Of a DNA stretch of 62,424 nt, positions 1,764 to 62,424 are shown piece by piece. Source of the DNA: Candidatus Nomurabacteria bacterium (lineage in GTDB: Bacteria > Patescibacteriota > Saccharimonadia > Saccharimonadales > Saccharimonadaceae); assembly GCA_031280785.1 (NCBI GenBank), contig JAITGI010000042.1, positions 1 through 62,424 of the forward strand, in the 5' to 3' direction. The first letter of the stretch is position 1. The number at the start of each line of letters is the position of its first letter. The position numbers and the translations under genes were made by a program. The notes under the pieces were generated by a model, which was not told the origin of the DNA, ran no database searches, and worked only from the letters and a program-made list of their open reading frames with translations.

Positions 1764-2271
1764 CTCTAAGCTCCTTTCGCGCCCTCGTTAACGACTCGTC
1801 GACATATTTACTTTTTAACTTTTTGTAATCTCCGCGCGAAAAGTTAGCCACCTTGGCAAAGACTTCTTTCGTATTCGAGTATTCTTTTGCGACTGTTGGG
1901 TTTCTCAAGAGATATTGTCGTAAAACTATAAAATCATCGTATATGGGAGTGTTTTTTATTGCCAAATGAACGTGGGTATCGCCACTAGCCGTTTCCTCTT
2001 GTTTCGACGCAAGAAATATGTAGTTGCTGCGGCTATTTTTTCCGGCGAAAAATCCAGCACTCTGCAATTTTTCAGAAAAGTTTTTCAGTTCCGCCACCGA
2101 CCCAGCCGCAACCAAAATATCAATGATATTTTTACCACTCATTTCCGGAATTGCGGTCGATCCGACGTGTTCAATAATTGTGTTTTTACCTAAAAGCGCG
2201 GCTAACTGATGTTTTTTCGCGTTAAACAGCCGCTTATTATTTTGAAAATCTTGTCTTATAATTTCGATCAT
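1750..2271 (-). CDS. GrpB/UPF0157 family nucleotidyltransferase-fold protein
   Basis: IEHVGSTAIPEMSGKNIIDILV and HVHL motifs are typical of GrpB. The start overlaps the stop of the upstream gene. Confidence 0.7.
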   Translation of the reverse strand: MIEIIRQDFQNNKRLFNAKKHQLAALLGKNTIIEHVGSTAIPEMSGKNIIDILVAAGSVAELKNFSEKLQSAGFFAGKNSRSNYIFLASKQEETASGDTHVHLAIKNTPIYDDFIVLRQYLLRNPTVAKEYSNTKEVFAKVANFSRGDYKKLKSKYVDESLTRARKELRDGAK

Positions 2272-3452
2272 TATTCACGCTCTCCATAGGAATTACTTGG
2301 CAATTTTTCATCGCTATAATAATCGTACCACAACGGACGATAATTTTCCCATCTACGCGGACGCATATTTTTATCTGCAAAAATATTTTCCAAGAGTACT
2401 CGACTTTGAATATAATATTCCAGACCCCTGGCGTTTTCGGCGATAATTTTTGCCTGACCAGGTGTTTGAATTTGATAAATATTGACAACAGGAAAACGAG
2501 TAAGGCTATCTTTCAACTCCATGAAACCGTTACCTATTTCAAACACCTGATCAATGCCGGCAATATACGAAACCGTAGTCTGAATACCCTTTGATTTAGC
2601 TACATCAAGAGTTCTTTTTATGTCTTCAACGCTTATTAGTGATTTCGTTTTTACCAGCAAACTTTCACGTTTCGTAAAATTATCCAGCGCATAAACTAAC
2701 GCGAAATTATCAATTTGTGCCAGTTCGTCAAGCGCTTTTTCAGAGTTCACTTCACAACCAAAATACATCAACTCTCCGGTAAAACCACGCTTTTTTGCAG
2801 CGCAGTTCACAATTTTCATATGCTCAACAACATTTTCTTCGCCGCTAAATAAACCCGTAACTACCGCTATCTGTTTCAGCCCAGACACATCCAGTTTTCG
2901 ACTGTCAAAAAAATCTTGAACGTCACCCAGAGTCTTTAACGATAAATCGTCTTTAATAACAGTTTCGTCATACAGGTTTTTATAATTGTGGACACAGGCT
3001 TGACAGCCACCGCAATTACTGCGACTTCTACTATTCAGGTTTAACAAATTCGGACCGCGCTGATACGACGCCTCGCAAGTATCAAGCATTAGTTCGTCAG
3101 TCGTGCCAATCACGTCATTGCCAAAATACAGCTCGCCAAACACGGCGCTAAAATTCGTGTCTTCCGCTCCCCGAACTGGTAATGCATACCATGACTGGTT
3201 GCCGTCAAAAAACTTTCCTCTAAACCGAACCCGAAAATCCTGTCTGACTTCGTTATTCGGAAGACACAGTCCGCTCCGATTAAAGTCTATCATTGCGACT
3301 TCCGATGATCGGACACCATATCTCTCACTAATCTCACGCCAATAATCAACGTTTTGAGTCACCTCTATACCAAACTTATTATAATGCGGTCCTTTTTCAA
3401 GATTTACATTTTCCACATTGCTCCTTTCATGTTCATAATAAAAAGCGACCAC
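2271..3452 (-). CDS. radical-SAM-like Fe-S protein with non-canonical CX2CX2C motif
   Basis: 393-aa ORF. CGGCQAC sits at aa 147-153 (2994-3014), where radical SAM enzymes carry CX3CX2C. Downstream SGEE (GGE-like), IQTTVSYIAGI and YQIQTPG segments resemble the radical SAM TIM-barrel core. The start codon is uncertain (GTG at 3452 or an internal GTG after AAGGAG). Confidence 0.55.
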   Translation of the reverse strand: MVAFYYEHERSNVENVNLEKGPHYNKFGIEVTQNVDYWREISERYGVRSSEVAMIDFNRSGLCLPNNEVRQDFRVRFRGKFFDGNQSWYALPVRGAEDTNFSAVFGELYFGNDVIGTTDELMLDTCEASYQRGPNLLNLNSRSRSNCGGCQACVHNYKNLYDETVIKDDLSLKTLGDVQDFFDSRKLDVSGLKQIAVVTGLFSGEENVVEHMKIVNCAAKKRGFTGELMYFGCEVNSEKALDELAQIDNFALVYALDNFTKRESLLVKTKSLISVEDIKRTLDVAKSKGIQTTVSYIAGIDQVFEIGNGFMELKDSLTRFPVVNIYQIQTPGQAKIIAENARGLEYYIQSRVLLENIFADKNMRPRRWENYRPLWYDYYSDEKLPSNSYGERE

Positions 3453-14653: not shown

Positions 14654-15040
14654 TTACGAACGCCTAGTTATGAAGAATATTGCGACACCCTCGAATAGTA
14701 TAATCAGGACGACATATGATATCTGCATCTGCCCCAGGGAGTTCAGCGAAATTAACAACAGCGGCGCAAAAGCAATTACGGCTGCAAGGCGAACTATTTT
14801 TTTCTGCTGGTTGGCGGTATTGGTTTTTTCAATATCATCCAGTTTTGATCGTTTCTTGGCGCTCGCGGCGACTCTGCCGAGCAGAATGATAAAAATAAAG
14901 AATAACAGATAGACTAGAATCAATACCATCAGCAAACTGAACATTCCGCCGCTAGATGGGTCGATCATGTTCATGAGCAGCAATAGGGCGACCACAACAG
15001 CGAAGAAACTGATTATCAACGGCGCGGAGGATTTTTTCAT
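14654..15040 (-). CDS. small integral membrane protein (about 4 TM)
   Basis: 128-aa hydrophobic ORF. It is the first gene of the apparent operon with 14193-14624 and 11496-14186. Confidence 0.6.
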   Translation of the reverse strand: MKKSSAPLIISFFAVVVALLLLMNMIDPSSGGMFSLLMVLILVYLLFFIFIILLGRVAASAKKRSKLDDIEKTNTANQQKKIVRLAAVIAFAPLLLISLNSLGQMQISYVVLIILFEGVAIFFITRRS

Positions 15041-15085
15041 TACCGTGTTATTATATCATTTCTATTTGTTTTTAAACAAAAAAAA

Positions 15086-15190
15086 TTAGGTCCAAGGACA
15101 CACAATTGCGATATCTTTCGATAAACTCATCCGCCGCATTTATTTAATTACTAATATGGCGCGAGTCGCGTCAGTGGTCCAAGGACCTAA
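15086..15190. repeat. pair of 14-nt interrupted palindromes (TTAGGTCC-AA-GGAC / GTCC-AA-GGACCTAA)
   Basis: 15086-15099 and 15177-15190 share GGTCCAAGGAC and are mutually inverted (12/14). On the minus strand the second arm is followed by T8. A partial third copy (TCCTTGG) lies at 15345-15351. Confidence 0.5.
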
Positions 15191-16022
15191 ACTGACCGCC
15201 CTTACGGGCATATCGCGGAGCTGTAAGTCCGATAATCCGGATTCGCTCAACACGTATCTGGACCAGTCTGACGATACTATCGTCGTTTGATCGGAGCGAA
15301 GCTCAACGATCAATGCCTATCATGTATCGTCATTTCTGATCCAAATCCTTGGTCAGTCGCAAAGAAGGTGCTGGCTTTTGAATAAAAATGTTTATTTTTT
15401 AGCCTGATTTGAGGTTATCACATGACTACGTTTATGTCAATTTATTTTACATATTATATGTTGTGAATATTACAATTTTAGTATTATTTACAGAGTAAAA
15501 GAAAAAATCATGTATGTTGTAGGAAATACATCATATATTCAATAATATATTTCTATTTGCTAAATTTTCAACAATTTCATTGTAAAAATTATTACATTAG
15601 TTGTGTATTCAATTTTTGTTCAATAGGAATATGTTGCGTAAGTTTTTTATGCAGAATATTTTTAGAATTATTATTATATACATCGTCGCAAAATGGATCG
15701 CCGAGGCTGACTGGCTTTTTGGCTTTCGTGATGCTTTCCATATAAGGTCCAAAATAATTTTGCTTATTATTTTTTTGTTTGTTTTTACTAATGCGATCAT
15801 GCTCCGAAGCCCCACAATTTGTATTTTTCATTTTTTAATACGTTGCTGCCGTGCGGCAATGCGACATGTCATTTCACATTTTCGTAATTTATGATTTTCA
15901 ATACAAAAATATGAAGTCCTCTGCTGCCACCCCCGCTCAAATCAACATTTCGTTATGCTTGATTGACGCAATTAGCACGATTTTACACTTTTCCACAGGT
16001 GAAATTTTATCAAAAAATAGTA

Positions 16023-16051
16023 TTGACATAAGCATTTTTTTGCCATATTAT
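16023..16051 (+). promoter_or_regulatory. near-consensus sigma70 promoter
   Basis: TTGACA (16023-16028), 17 nt, TATTAT (16046-16051). Confidence 0.5.
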
Positions 16052-16057
16052 AGGGGT

Positions 16058-16156
16058 GGTTCTTGAACACATAAAGTGTTCAGGGATTACACAAAGACAA
16101 ACATCGGAAACAAATAAGAAATGGCTGTGGTAACTCTCGCGCCCAGCCATTTTTTA
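16058..16156 (+). ncRNA. candidate ~100-nt small RNA, convergent with ssrA
   Basis: Lies between the promoter at 16023-16051 and a hairpin ATGGCTGTGG..CCCAGCCAT followed by TTTTT (16121-16155). Internal hairpin TGAACAC-ataaa-GTGTTCA. No plausible ORF. Confidence 0.35.
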
Positions 16157-16188
16157 TTATAAAAAAATAATAACCGCATTTTGCGGTT
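16151..16188 (-). terminator. rho-independent terminator of ssrA
   Basis: Minus strand AACCGCA-aaa-TGCGGTT (16172-16188) followed by a T-rich run. Confidence 0.7.
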
Positions 16189-16198
16189 GATAAATCTT

Positions 16199-58754: not shown

Positions 58755-58831
58755 TGGAGGACCCAGAGGGACTTGAACCCTCGACACCAGGCTTAAGAGG
58801 CCCGTGCTCTAACCAGCTGAGCTATGGGTCC
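58755..58831 (-). tRNA. tRNA-Lys (anticodon CTT), CCA encoded
   Basis: Reverse complement GGACCCATAGCTCAGCTGG..CGGGC-CTCTTAA-GCCTG..GGTTCAAGTCC..TGGGTCCTCCA. Confidence 0.9.
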
Positions 58832-58941: not shown

Positions 58942-59349
58942 TCAATCTTCGGCGCTGATGAGCGGTAACTTTATTACGTTTTCCGCTCCGGTTATTCGCT
59001 TTTTGACAGCCTGGCATTCCGCAGACTGCTCTAAAGCGATCTTAAGATCCGCTTTATACGCATCCGATTTGCGTTCATACCACCTCCCGTCGTTAGACGG
59101 GAAACAATACTTCCTGGTTCTGCTAGGTGCGCCGAACGCGGCGCTCCCGAACACGGACATCATCCTGGAATATTCCGCTATCGCGGCCATGTTGTCCGTT
59201 ACGGCGGCCTGCGCCGCCGCTTCCGACTCGTATATTGCCAATGGCTGAGCATACTTATTGAGCATGCTCTGCTCCGCCGCTACAGAAAATACGTACTTCG
59301 CCTTCGCCTTCGCCTTCGCCTTCGCCTTCGCCTTCGTATTCTTTTTCAT
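58942..59349 (-). CDS. hypothetical protein with an N-terminal (Lys-Ala)6 repeat
   Basis: Start ATG 59349 follows AAGGAGAAAAA. The protein begins MKKNTKAKAKAKAKAKAKYVF. Confidence 0.6.
   Translation of the reverse strand: MKKNTKAKAKAKAKAKAKYVFSVAAEQSMLNKYAQPLAIYESEAAAQAAVTDNMAAIAEYSRMMSVFGSAAFGAPSRTRKYCFPSNDGRWYERKSDAYKADLKIALEQSAECQAVKKRITGAENVIKLPLISAED
59296..59336. repeat. hexanucleotide tandem repeat (CCTTCG)n, ~6.5 units, in frame
   Basis: Read directly from the sequence. It encodes the KA repeat of the 58942-59349 gene. Confidence 0.9.
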
Positions 59350-59853
59350 TTTTTCTCCTTTTAGCGCCCCATGGTAGGGCAAATTTATAAACTATGAGGG
59401 TCGATGCGCAAAATACACATCACTAACCCCTGATGACACACGGAATCAATATGCATCGAATAATACATGCAACAAGATTCACATTTAATTCATCAGGTCC
59501 GCGCTGGTTCCAGGATTGGAACCGCCCCCTTTGCTGTTTAACCAAACTTCTTGGGCAAAAAATCTGATTAAACAACAAAGGTTGCTTTGCTCGCGCGGCG
59601 AGAAAAAGAATGAAACTTTCATCGATTGACATTTTAAGGTGCGAACAATCCTACTAAACTCGTTAAGCTTTTTTGTGAAACAAAAAAGCTGTATGTACAT
59701 ACAGCTCGAATTTGCTATATGCACTGTGTTTTAGCAGATTATTATGGTTCATCAAGTTGGTTTCTTAACTTGATATCCCTATTATATCAAATCATAATCG
59801 TTTTGTCAATAATTTAATGCCTATTTTTGATAATTTGCAATTTTTTTCAACTG

Positions 59854-59936
59854 TGGTAAGACTCCATAAAGAAATCCAGTCCTGTTTTGCGCGGAACAAA
59901 CAAAAATGAGGAATATAAATACAACATAGAGAAAAT
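59854..59936. repeat. left arm of a ~80-bp imperfect inverted repeat flanking the AT-rich cassette
   Basis: Reverse complement of 59862-59936 aligns without gaps to 61835-61909 (63 of 75 identical by manual count). Weaker similarity extends ~8 nt further. Confidence 0.8.
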
Positions 59937-59962
59937 AGTATGATTTTTAGTAATAGCCGAGG

Positions 59963-61600
59963 TTAATTGTTTCTGCGAGATTTTGGTTTTTTCTTAAATT
60001 GGCTAAGGATATATGCGCATTTTTTGTCGGTAAATTGCGAAATATGCCATAATCCGATTGCGGCAAATGGCAACAGTAAAACAAACACGTAGAAATTAAA
60101 CCGCCCACCGCTTTCAGTAAATAGACTGAGCAAAAATTGACCCATAAATGTAAGTGGAATAATCAAAATTAACAATTTCTTTTTATGCTTTCTATCTCTG
60201 AAAATGAAAACTACACCGAAAGCGCACATTAAATAGACGAGCGTCTCGTAGCCGTCAGAAAATTTATACAAGATATTATATGCGGTATGTTTCGGTTGCA
60301 GGGTTGTAAATAATTTCGGTTTATTCGGATCATTTTGGTAAATTGCTTTATTTTTTCCTTTAAAATAATCGCTCGCGCCCCAGACCTGTAATGCGCCAAA
60401 ATCCGGTGAATTCCAATCACTCAATTGCTTTCGCAAAAAGAATCTGGCTGCCATTTTGGGATTTTCCATAAATTCATTTAATCGGTATTTTATCCGCTCG
60501 GCACTACGAGATTTTGCCAATTCATCATTTCTCAGATCAGTCATCGTATGCCCATCGATAACATAGCTCCAATGACCAGTCATTTCAGATATCGGACCCT
60601 GTAATGCTCCCATTTCCTGATAAGCAATTTTATCATTCTCGTCATAAGCAGCTATACCCTGTGCGACATTTATAAAGGTCGGAAAAGCCGTAATTTCATA
60701 TTGATTTTGCATTGAATTAGCGACGAAGCGGAAAAATGGCAGCGTGAAAACTAGAATAAAAATAAACCCGCCACATAAAATAATAGTTTTTAAGCGGTTT
60801 TTCACTTGGAATAATCGCAAAATCAAAACAATTAAAACTGCTATGATAACAATTTGCGCTTGTAACTTGAACGCCAAAGCGAGAAATGATAACGGAATAA
60901 TTGCTGCGATATATTGCCATTTTTCTTTTTCAAAAAATTTCATCAAAAGATATATGACAAAAATCATGAGACAAACACTCGGGATGTTACCATATGCCCA
61001 ACTAACATAGAAAATAAACTGAATACAAAGCGGAGCGATTAGCCAGTAAATTTTAGCAATTTTGTCATTTTTGAATAATTTTTTTGTGATTTTCCCGAGT
61101 AACCAAAACGCCAAAACCATTAACGCCAAATTCATTATGCGAAACGCCAAAAAAGCACCGCTCATACCGAATAATTTAACCAGGACTCCGCCAAACATCC
61201 CCATTGGTATCATATAGTCAAATTGGTCCCAGTATGCATACGCAAATGGCCAAACAAACAATCCACCTTGGTCATTCACACTTGGAACCTGGGAATAAAT
61301 CAGTAGAACTATCGTCAAAATGGCGGTCGTTAAAATTAAAGCCCAGTTCTGAATTTTTTTCAGTGAGATTTTATATCTATCGAATAATTTTTGCCCGATA
61401 AAAACATACAGAAAAATGCCGACAGCGATTAAAATTACTGATAAAACATTAAGTGGATTGATGGCACGAAAAAATATATTGCCATCAGAGAAAGAGGAAA
61501 ATAATGCTGAGCTGATAGACAGCAGAATTATCAAGCCTATAAACAACACCAGAGTAATTCCGTGTATCAATTTGGAAAATTTGACGAGAAATCTTTTCAT
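59963..61600 (-). CDS. polytopic membrane protein, GT-C / Gtr-type (serotype-converting-like) glycosyltransferase candidate
   Basis: 545-aa ORF with more than 10 hydrophobic helices, a ~110-aa soluble loop and a Lys-rich tail. It is markedly AT-rich relative to the rest of the window. Confidence 0.55.
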   Translation of the reverse strand: MKRFLVKFSKLIHGITLVLFIGLIILLSISSALFSSFSDGNIFFRAINPLNVLSVILIAVGIFLYVFIGQKLFDRYKISLKKIQNWALILTTAILTIVLLIYSQVPSVNDQGGLFVWPFAYAYWDQFDYMIPMGMFGGVLVKLFGMSGAFLAFRIMNLALMVLAFWLLGKITKKLFKNDKIAKIYWLIAPLCIQFIFYVSWAYGNIPSVCLMIFVIYLLMKFFEKEKWQYIAAIIPLSFLALAFKLQAQIVIIAVLIVLILRLFQVKNRLKTIILCGGFIFILVFTLPFFRFVANSMQNQYEITAFPTFINVAQGIAAYDENDKIAYQEMGALQGPISEMTGHWSYVIDGHTMTDLRNDELAKSRSAERIKYRLNEFMENPKMAARFFLRKQLSDWNSPDFGALQVWGASDYFKGKNKAIYQNDPNKPKLFTTLQPKHTAYNILYKFSDGYETLVYLMCAFGVVFIFRDRKHKKKLLILIIPLTFMGQFLLSLFTESGGRFNFYVFVLLLPFAAIGLWHISQFTDKKCAYILSQFKKKPKSRRNN

Positions 61601-61626
61601 ATTTTCTGCTTTCTCGCTAATGCCCT

Positions 61627-61656
61627 AAAACAAAATAGGACACCGCGACGGTGTTC
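61627..61656 (-). terminator. leader terminator/attenuator hairpin upstream of the cassette gene
   Basis: Minus strand GAACACCG-tcg-CGGTGTCC followed by TATTTTGTTTT, ending ~27 nt before ATG 61600. Confidence 0.45.
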
Positions 61657-61834
61657 TAAATCGTTTTCCAACAAGACAGCAGATGCCTTATCTCGCGCGG
61701 TGCCCTATATTGCGACATCCGCGCGATGTCTTGTTGGATTATTTAATTTAGAACGTCATGATTATATCATATCTCGGCAGTATCCACTGATTATTTTACG
61801 GCTGTTAACTTCAGCTATCCCAAAAAACTATGGC

Positions 61835-61917
61835 ATTTTCTCTATATTGTTTTTGTGTTTCTCATTTTTGTATATTCCGTGCAAAACAGGGCTGGATTTT
61901 TTTGTGGAAGCTTATTA
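61835..61917. repeat. right arm of the ~80-bp imperfect inverted repeat
   Basis: See 59854-59936. Confidence 0.8.
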
Positions 61918-61925
61918 GGGAAACG

Positions 61926-61948
61926 AAAAAGTCGCCGATTTAGGCGAC
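61926..61948 (-). terminator. rho-independent terminator after tRNA-Arg
   Basis: Minus strand GTCGCC-taaatc-GGCGAC followed by TTTTT. Confidence 0.7.
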
Positions 61949-61970
61949 AATTCCGAAAAATTAGCGTTTC

Positions 61971-62047
61971 TGGTATCCCGTGCAGGAGTCGAACCTGCAA
62001 CCTTATCCTTAGGACGGATCTGCTCTATCCAGTTGAGCTAACGGGAC
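61971..62047 (-). tRNA. tRNA-Arg (anticodon CCT), CCA encoded
   Basis: Reverse complement GTCCCGTTAGCTCAACTGGATAGAGC..loop GTCCTAA..GCAGG-TTCGACT-CCTGC-ACGGGAT-ACCA. One mismatch in the anticodon stem and G1:U72. Confidence 0.75.
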
Positions 62048-62094
62048 ATAACACGATTTTACCCTAGTTTGACGAAAAATGGTATGATATAAGG

Positions 62095-62424
62095 ATGAAA
62101 AAGCCGACTGTTACTGTTTTGATACCGTGTTATAACGAAGCGGCGGTTTTGCCGAAACTTTATCGTCGACTGGCGAGCCTCGCCCAGCGGCAAAAAACCG
62201 AGCGAATAACTTTTTTGTTCATTAACGACGGATCACGCGATCATACCCTGGAAACCATCAAGAAATATGCGGCGACCGATCGGCGCGTCGGCTATATCGA
62301 CCTGTCGCGCAACTATGGCAAAGAGATCGCGCTGACAGCCGGAATCGACCACGCGAACGGCGACGCCGTGGTGCTGGTCGACGCTGATTTGCAAGACCCG
62401 CCCGAGCTGATACCGAAGATGATA
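62095..62424 (+). CDS. GT2 polyisoprenyl-phosphate glycosyltransferase (GtrB/CsbB-like), partial at window end
   Basis: VTVLIPCYNEAAVLPKL..FINDGSRDHT..LSRNYGKEIALTAG..VLVDADLQDPPE. TGgTATGAT extended -10 lies 6 nt before the ATG. Confidence 0.85.
   Translation, partial: MKKPTVTVLIPCYNEAAVLPKLYRRLASLAQRQKTERITFLFINDGSRDHTLETIKKYAATDRRVGYIDLSRNYGKEIALTAGIDHANGDAVVLVDADLQDPPELIPKMI

Follow-up and report, generated by a model that had tools for sequence, protein, structure and literature searches.

Why does a single AT-rich membrane-protein gene lie between two long, imperfect inverted repeats in the genome of a Saccharibacterium, and can the enclosed segment still move or flip? The question arises at the right-hand end of contig JAITGI010000042.1 of Candidatus Nomurabacteria bacterium (assembly GCA_031280785.1), the whole of which (62,424 nt) was analysed and is referred to here as the window. 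An initial annotation of this DNA had read the segment as a swappable or invertible cassette for surface-glycan modification. The answer we prefer, with a probability of about one half, is that a PMT_2/ArnT-like glycosyltransferase gene of the GT-C type was acquired horizontally and inserted downstream of tRNA-Arg(CCT), beside a native gene for a glycosyltransferase of the GT2 type, and that the arms of the repeat are a fossil of this acquisition.

The inverted repeat itself is genuine and statistically strong. Its arms occupy positions 59857-59966 (left) and 61805-61914 (right), are 110 nt long and 79% complementary, and align without a gap at 87 of 110 identical positions, so that the repeat is longer than the 63 of 75 matches (59862-59936 and 61835-61909) first described. 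Similarity stops abruptly past both ends; the outer ends read TAAG... and the inner ends ...GTTAA, at the same nucleotide in both arms. Self-BLAST of the whole window recovered the pair at E = 9e-20 and yielded only one other repeat, formed by two tRNA-Val genes. The pair scores 96 bits; when 59300-62000 was resampled 200 times under a first-order Markov model, the best inverted match at long range reached 24.3 +/- 2.1 bits (maximum 32.8). The 23 differences (21% divergence) comprise 17 transitions and 6 transversions, and the longest perfect match is 11 nt. The outer half of the arms is 84% conserved versus 75% for the inner half, and 4 mismatches fall within the outermost 15 nt.

The right arm is situated between the terminator of tRNA-Arg and the promoter of the enclosed gene, at -51 to -160 from the predicted start site, and the inner end of the left arm abuts and overlaps the stop codon of that gene (59963-59965). 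A TA dinucleotide is found at both outer ends (TA-AGACTCC...GGAAGCT-TA), which is palindromic and not separable from the repeat itself; no direct repeat longer than TA is present at these ends, nor is there an 8-bp duplication of the type made by the insertion sequence (IS) family IS66. Folding of the left and right arms revealed no intrinsic structure, and a promoter scan found no acceptable sigma-70 match within either. Changes compatible with G.U pairing are balanced between the strands (7 versus 10, plus the 6 transversions). The 7-codon open reading frames (ORFs) pointed out earlier in each arm do exist, and carry no weight. What remains is a pair of terminal inverted repeats enclosing one passenger gene and, as was stated from the start, no transposase or recombinase gene.

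The passenger, a minus-strand ORF at 59963-61600 with the boundaries first given (545 aa, or 528 aa in an alternative gene call), encodes an intact GT-C-fold glycosyltransferase belonging to a small and rare subfamily. Its match to the Pfam family PMT_2 (PF13231, ArnT/PMT-like) lies just above threshold (29.1 bits versus a cut-off of 26.1; E = 1.3e-6), and Glucos_trans_II (PF14264, the GtrII family) gave no match in the Pfam scan. The 80 aligned relatives are distributed over PMT_2 (37/80), GtrII (2/80) and Alg9-like (2/80), all of which are GT-C families. An AlphaFold model built on the alignment of its relatives is all-helical (pLDDT 89.4, pTM 0.92), and the top 12 Foldseek matches to it are all GT-C enzymes (AglB, STT3, ArnT 5f15, PglB, Pmt4, EmbB, ALG3/9 and DPY19) at probabilities of 0.99-1.00, with modest TM-scores of 0.3-0.4 and a best E-value of 9e-4. 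Early in the protein, at least 90% of the 80 relatives retain an Asp residue (D110, motif DQ); it would lie in the first external loop, the helix list of the predicted model placing it between helices 3 and 4. The protein class put forward at the outset, GT-C, is thus borne out by family, relatives, model and fold search alike.

The rarity of the subfamily is seen in the database searches. Among 1.84 billion representative proteins there are 1,105 relatives at E <= 1e-3, only six of them at E <= 1e-30; the cluster to which the protein belongs has no members other than window sequences and an unrelated 46-aa fragment, and the family alignment had no match in metagenome or viral contigs. There was no PHROG match in the window scan and no relative of the GT-C protein in IMG/VR, and tblastn against 50,697 phage records returned one weak match (24% identity, in an unannotated 5-kb phage record). 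On these grounds, together with the lack of an integrase homologue or a tRNA-fragment repeat in the window (see below), an origin from a phage was considered and rejected.

In composition the gene is foreign to its surroundings. Its G+C content is 35.7% versus 49.9% for the window, and its third-position value (GC3) is 0.374 versus 0.592 +/- 0.084 for 29 other window ORFs, in keeping with the AT-richness that had been judged by eye. The claim that the AT-rich cassette is bounded by the arms had to be given up: the tract runs from ~59383 to ~61960, i.e. some 470 nt past the left arm. The closest GT-C homologues (34-67% identity) sit in low-GC contigs and match their neighbours in composition, and their contexts are mutually unrelated (between rsmD and hisS; beside tRNA-His and a 42-nt tandem array; after an rmlACBD cluster). 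Since these homologues look native to low-GC contigs and occur in unrelated contexts, the comparison points to a lower-GC donor from which the gene entered this 50%-GC genome.

The site of insertion also appears to be one that differs between relatives. TM7-H1 and four other Saccharibacteria have a bPH_2 gene and a peptidyl-prolyl isomerase (PPIase) gene immediately after tRNA-Arg(CCT). The same two genes are found 3.1 kb beyond tRNA-Arg in the window, with the GT-C segment, an AT-rich spacer, a 135-aa ORF and tRNA-Lys in between, and the interval downstream of tRNA-Arg would therefore be variable, as far as can be judged from a comparison with TM7-H1 that spans a large evolutionary distance (among GTDB genomes, the best relatives of the PPIase gene, from Candidatus Saccharibacteria including TM7-H1, are 39% identical). 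In TM7-H1 a Xer-like integrase adjoins tRNA-Arg. No homologue of this integrase was found in the window by tblastn, and the window contains no repeat of a tRNA fragment or tRNA 3' end; a classical tRNA island was rejected for both reasons.

The gene would have arrived with its own promoter and a structured leader, both of which (61601-61769, minus strand) lie wholly within the repeat-bounded segment. The promoter is marked by an extended -10 element, TGATATAAT (61769-61761, minus strand), and the start site is predicted at ~61754. The leader of ~150 nt that follows, characterized by fold z-scores and a terminator scan, consists of a nested GC-rich hairpin of ~105 nt (61650-61754) and then a terminator-like hairpin (ACACCG-UCG-CGGUGU plus a U-run, 61654-61640), whose 5' strand overlaps the 3' strand of the leader's outer stem. 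Fold z-scores for the leader are -7.6 and -7.3, and an Rfam search assigned no family either to it or to the AT-rich spacer. With a promoter of its own, and with a leader that folds strongly and includes a terminator-like hairpin, the gene is probably controlled by attenuation, the leader being a candidate attenuator or riboswitch. The position of the promoter inside the segment also means that flipping the segment would not switch the gene.

On the other side of tRNA-Arg begins the gene of a probable GT2 polyprenyl-phosphate glycosyltransferase (62095-62424, plus strand), which is GtrB/PgfS/ArnC-like, in line with the GtrB/CsbB-like neighbour first proposed. The contig ends inside this gene, after 110 codons. 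These 110 N-terminal residues match Glycos_transf_2 at E = 1e-27. Of the NCBIfam models, PgfS and ArnC fit best, with scores far below the full-length cut-offs because the contig end cuts the gene, and the best match of the N-terminus is 65% identical. At 53% G+C the gene is native in composition, unlike the GT-C gene. Among GT2 relatives at 57-59% identity, the one in locus L011 is followed by GtrA and a convergent GtrII-family gene. In L012 GtrA and a YfhO-family gene follow, in L014 GtrA alone, and in L013 neither GtrA nor a GT-C partner. Because related GT2-GtrA modules pair with GtrII in one case and YfhO in another, the GT-C enzyme appears to be the exchanged part: gene order suggests that the GT2-flippase core recurs and that the GT-C partner is what changes on an evolutionary time scale. 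To this extent the idea of a swappable cassette stands; the proposal that the segment can be swapped or inverted at present finds no support.

There is good support for the GT-C gene as the variable transferase in a system that modifies surface glycans, and adjacency and the arrangements in other genomes suggest that it works in a three-component partnership. Going by the enzyme families and by known three-component systems, the GT2 enzyme would charge polyprenyl phosphate with a sugar on the cytoplasmic side of the membrane. A flippase, whose gene would lie beyond the contig end, would carry the lipid-linked sugar across, and on the outside the GT-C enzyme would then pass the sugar to a cell-wall glycopolymer or to a protein of the cell surface. 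A polyprenyl-phosphate-linked sugar as donor for this last step is what the family of the enzyme and the adjacent GT2 gene would both imply.

Two further observations were made on the GT2 gene. Its relatives in all four loci are called as two consecutive ORFs, a GT-A domain of ~160 aa and then ~150-180 aa without a Pfam match (L011, 10001-10983; L012, 3847-4907; L013, 6001-6911; L014, 6001-6950), and 120 of 120 matches to the window's GT2 N-terminus, among those listed, are shorter than 200 aa; this lineage may have a naturally split GtrB-like enzyme. The contig, which is identical with the window, ends in the GT2 gene 510 nt past the right arm, and an assembly break within a glycan-modification locus may reflect strain-level variation there.

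Searches for further copies of the segment's ends and for an enzyme acting on them came back empty. No third arm copy was found in the window, the one contig of the source genome covered here, with a degenerate 25-mer allowing 3 mismatches, none in the window or in 17 related loci with BLAST-short and an nhmmer arm profile, and none in IMG/VR or JGI metagenome contigs with exact degenerate patterns. A blastn search of 59300-62100 against plasmids matched the tRNA only. No flanking inverted repeats or arm sequence occurred at any of eight GT-C homologue loci, and the 3' flanks of the two closest homologues (L003 and L015) were without arm sequence. A Pfam scan of 28 window ORFs (8 of them without any match, and the largest ORFs left out) revealed no recombinase or transposase domain. 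Integron attC sites and IS66-type ends were tried as identities for the arms and rejected, core motifs and the 8-bp duplication being absent. There is, in short, no support for present mobility or inversion of the segment, and this part of the initial annotation fails on everything testable: no further copies, arms 21% diverged, no recombinase recognised, a promoter inside the segment and nothing more than TA at its ends.

The likeliest reading is instead that the 110-nt repeat is a fossil left by the arrival of the GT-C gene. We base this on the presence of two copies only, their 21% divergence with a transition to transversion ratio of 17:6, the lack of a wobble strand bias, the lack of a recognised recombinase and the promoter inside; the arms would now be a single degenerate pair that no longer serves as a working recombination substrate. 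As to how they arose, they could be the ends of a now defunct non-autonomous element with terminal inverted repeats, or the insertion itself could have created an inverted duplication; relics of a coding 3' end and a split palindrome are further candidates. Several points weigh against an acquisition recorded by fossil arms. No close relative was found in the collections searched, where the best flanking-gene identities are 39% and 65%, so that a true empty site is not demonstrable. The compositional island is not arm-bounded, as ~470 nt of AT-rich DNA with a strong promoter and a terminator of its own extend beyond the left arm. The GT2 gene is cut off by the contig end at 62424, before any GtrA-like flippase gene. 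Finally, the sharp and identical inner and outer ends and the lack of indels over 110 nt would fit a functional unit as well.

Several other explanations of the arms have to be set against this one. The segment could be a still-mobile, non-autonomous cassette in which the arms are long terminal inverted repeats, the transposase is encoded elsewhere in the genome and the GT-C gene is a passenger. One passenger between inverted ends with no transposase inside is what such a cassette looks like, cassettes of this kind are documented (PMC3913671, PMC5444012), the insertion point lies just past a terminator, and the sharp ends with TA on both outer sides would fit a target duplication of the IS630/Tc1 type, as would the better conserved outer half of the arms (84% versus 75%) fit a cassette. 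However, TA is palindromic and common in AT-rich DNA and is no evidence alone, the IS66-type duplication of 8 bp is missing, 4 mismatches fall in the outermost 15 nt, and arms of 110 nt far exceed the usual ends of bacterial IS elements. With two arm copies only in 62 kb and none in the 17 loci, IMG/VR or the JGI metagenomes, no homologue locus with such ends and no transposase recognised in the window, we consider continued mobility unlikely. The same low probability goes to the arms being the working ends of an undescribed, transposase-less cassette with long terminal inverted repeats that is moved or flipped by a recombinase encoded elsewhere in the genome. If that were true, Saccharibacteria would exchange or switch the specificity-determining GT-C enzyme as a plug-in module beside a fixed GtrB-like gene. 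Alternatively, each arm could preserve the final ~36 codons of a membrane-protein gene that was lost, its remainder having been replaced by the imported gene, either because two paralogues stood back to back or because one 3' end was copied in inverted orientation. In favour of this, one outward frame is open through both arms (left on the minus, right on the plus strand), encoding the hydrophobic peptides LTSAITKNHTIFSMLYLYSSFLFVPRKTGLDFFMES and LTSAIPKNYGIFSILFLCFSFLYIPCKTGLDFFVEA, which share 24/36 residues at a pN/pS of 0.36; both frames stop 1 to 4 codons past the outer arm end, and there are no indels over 110 nt. Yet a profile search of 5.8e9 proteins did not find the peptide, the excess of differences at one codon phase (11/23) is not significant, a 36-codon open frame is fairly often expected on a T-rich strand, and both inner ends fall at the same nucleotide (...GTTAA), a coincidence that truncations made independently would not produce. 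Coding relics we judge to be no likelier an answer than mobility.

The exactly shared inner end would fit insertion of the gene and its leader at the apex of a pre-existing ~220-nt imperfect palindromic element (MITE- or ERIC-like) downstream of tRNA-Arg; the joined arms would make a 110-bp hairpin, and long palindromic elements do occur beside homologues (L004, 1498-1700, z = -8.3; L001, 699-766). These elements share no sequence with the arms, though, and neither the self-BLAST of the window nor a profile search of the loci turned up an intact copy, which leaves a split palindrome quite unlikely. A different view is that a site-specific recombinase flips the 2-kb segment and so switches the glycan modification. 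Surface-glycan genes are the class most often phase-varied, inverted repeats do flank such a gene here, and the contig break 510 nt away could reflect heterogeneity in the population. Against this view, the promoter and leader lie inside, so that a flip would not uncouple the gene from its promoter, and the arms, at 79% identity, match perfectly over no more than 11 nt, which is too short for efficient homologous recombination. In active invertible elements the repeats stay nearly identical. With no recombinase recognised among the scanned ORFs, no homologue of the Xer-like integrase of TM7-H1 and no homologue locus carrying such repeats, phase variation by inversion is very unlikely. Least likely of all is a function in RNA, in which the arms would pair in a transcript reading through from tRNA-Arg and form a duplex for RNase III processing or mRNA stabilisation. 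The left arm is probably transcribed, there being no terminator from the stop codon to 59706, and the terminator of tRNA-Arg is only moderately strong; but the predicted start site (~61754) is downstream of the right arm, which places the 5' arm outside the mRNA, and the arms have no structure of their own. The wobble-compatible changes, at 7 versus 10 plus 6 transversions, show no preference for either strand and thus argue against selection for an RNA duplex.

If the gene was acquired as we propose, the locus consists of a native GtrB-like gene with an imported GT-C partner, drawn from a family that is rare, in a TM7 genome. For Saccharibacteria, which live attached to other bacteria as hosts, surface glycans probably influence both this attachment and the exposure to phages. 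Given the other GT-C families found in related modules, the locus suggests that the specificity of envelope glycans in this phylum can diversify by the swap of one gene, and the inverted repeat would be the only trace of how that swap happened. Should further copies of the arms exist, a new vehicle for GT-C swaps would be defined; otherwise the repeat is a curiosity on an ordinary kind of gene.

The surroundings of the segment agree with what was first annotated. The window is a stretch of core genome that includes genes for 16S rRNA, RNase P RNA, tmRNA, sigma-70, IF3 and MiaA. tRNA-Arg(CCT) lies at 61971-62047 on the minus strand, and its intrinsic terminator (61948-61931), with a stem of only 6 bp, ends 13 nt before the right arm. 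tRNA-Lys(CTT), at 58755-58831 on the minus strand, is the left landmark of the variable interval; these two genes, the terminator and the GT2 start at 62095 were all reproduced. Between tRNA-Lys and the AT-rich tract is the 135-aa ORF (58942-59349, minus strand; 146 aa from an upstream TTG), which has an ATG start with a good Shine-Dalgarno sequence, 53% G+C and a (Lys-Ala)6 run coded by six CTTCGC repeats (59296-59341), and which gave no Pfam, NCBIfam or PHROG match.

Outside the left arm, the AT-rich non-coding spacer (59383-59856, minus strand) contains a promoter, a 5' hairpin, a palindrome and an overlapping hairpin. The promoter is a perfect TTGACA-17-TATAAT (with TG) at 59809-59781 on the minus strand. 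The perfect 20-nt palindrome at 59687-59706 forms, together with U6, an intrinsic terminator on the minus strand and is overlapped by the 11-bp-stem hairpin at 59666-59690, both structures being present as first described; the terminator scan found no other terminator between the GT-C stop codon and 59706. The unit at 59678-59809 (minus strand), made up of this promoter and then ~95 nt with the 5' hairpin and terminator (z = -7.1), may represent a small RNA, or else the leader of the 135-aa ORF that lies downstream. Pairing of the candidate small RNA with the GT-C leader was rejected, as it was no better than that of shuffled sequences.

Some of the homologue loci and other parts of the contig yielded observations in their own right. 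In L002, positions 46-340 hold tRNA-His and then the 42-nt tandem array (5.4 copies) directly upstream of a GT-C homologue of 44-46% identity; TTTTGTTTCACAAAA forms part of its repeat unit and is also the core sequence of the window hairpin at 59666-59690. The contig of L002 is labelled Bifidobacteriaceae, yet has 26-37% G+C, and is probably misbinned. The element at L004 1498-1700 is a multi-hairpin palindromic structure of ~200 nt (DNA fold z = -8.3) found directly after the stop codon of a 41-43% identical GT-C homologue, with no similarity to the window arms. Within the window, a 393-aa ORF at 2271-3452 (minus strand) has a GC3 of 0.365, as low as that of the GT-C gene, with no Pfam match at 1e-5, and makes up a second compositionally foreign gene, one without flanking repeats. 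The 3' end of the tmRNA gene, a classic hot spot of integration, is directly adjoined by ~1.1 kb at 35% G+C (15000-16198) that contains no convincing ORF and may be a decayed insert.

How, then, does the locus compare with systems already known? It resembles tRNA-linked genomic islands in that foreign, AT-rich DNA follows a tRNA gene directly and occupies an interval that varies from relative to relative, but differs from them in having no integrase, no direct repeat of the tRNA 3' end and an insert of only 2-3 kb. As in Hin/Gin segments and the capsule promoter invertons of Bacteroides, inverted repeats flank DNA that affects a surface glycan; unlike in those switches, the repeats here enclose a whole gene together with its promoter, are 21% diverged and have no recognised recombinase nearby. 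Inverted ends of the IS type are typically ~20-50 nt. In mobile insertion cassettes, such as those of qnrD and qnrS2, a passenger is bounded by inverted repeats of this type (PMC3913671, PMC5444012), and the window segment is like them in its single passenger between imperfect inverted ends, the absence of an internal transposase and its intergenic insertion. It is unlike them in the 110-nt length of its arms, whose termini are not better conserved than the interior, and in showing neither a clear target duplication nor, in our searches, a second copy or cognate IS.

Another parallel is offered by the three-component glycosylation systems of GT-A enzyme, flippase and GT-C enzyme that have been described (PMC5836110, PMC8035078, PMC11127046, PMC11092751), which comprise GtrA-GtrB-Gtr(type) of Shigella and Salmonella phages, CsbB-GtcA-YfhO of Bacillus and Listeria, PgfS-PgfM1 and GtrB-PgtC2 of streptococci, and ArnC-ArnT. 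The window locus departs from the Gtr systems in that no prophage, integrase or att repeat accompanies it, and from the group as a whole in that its GT-C protein is PMT_2/ArnT-like and not of the GtrII or YfhO Pfam family, and in that its GT2 and GT-C genes are divergent with a tRNA gene between them. The 110-nt inverted repeat flanking the GT-C gene sets it apart both from these systems and from the eight homologue loci. What it has in common with them is a probable GT2 polyprenyl-phosphate glycosyltransferase gene near the gene of a GT-C membrane transferase, a position beside tRNA genes, and a GT-C partner that is AT-rich, rare and variable among related GT2 modules.

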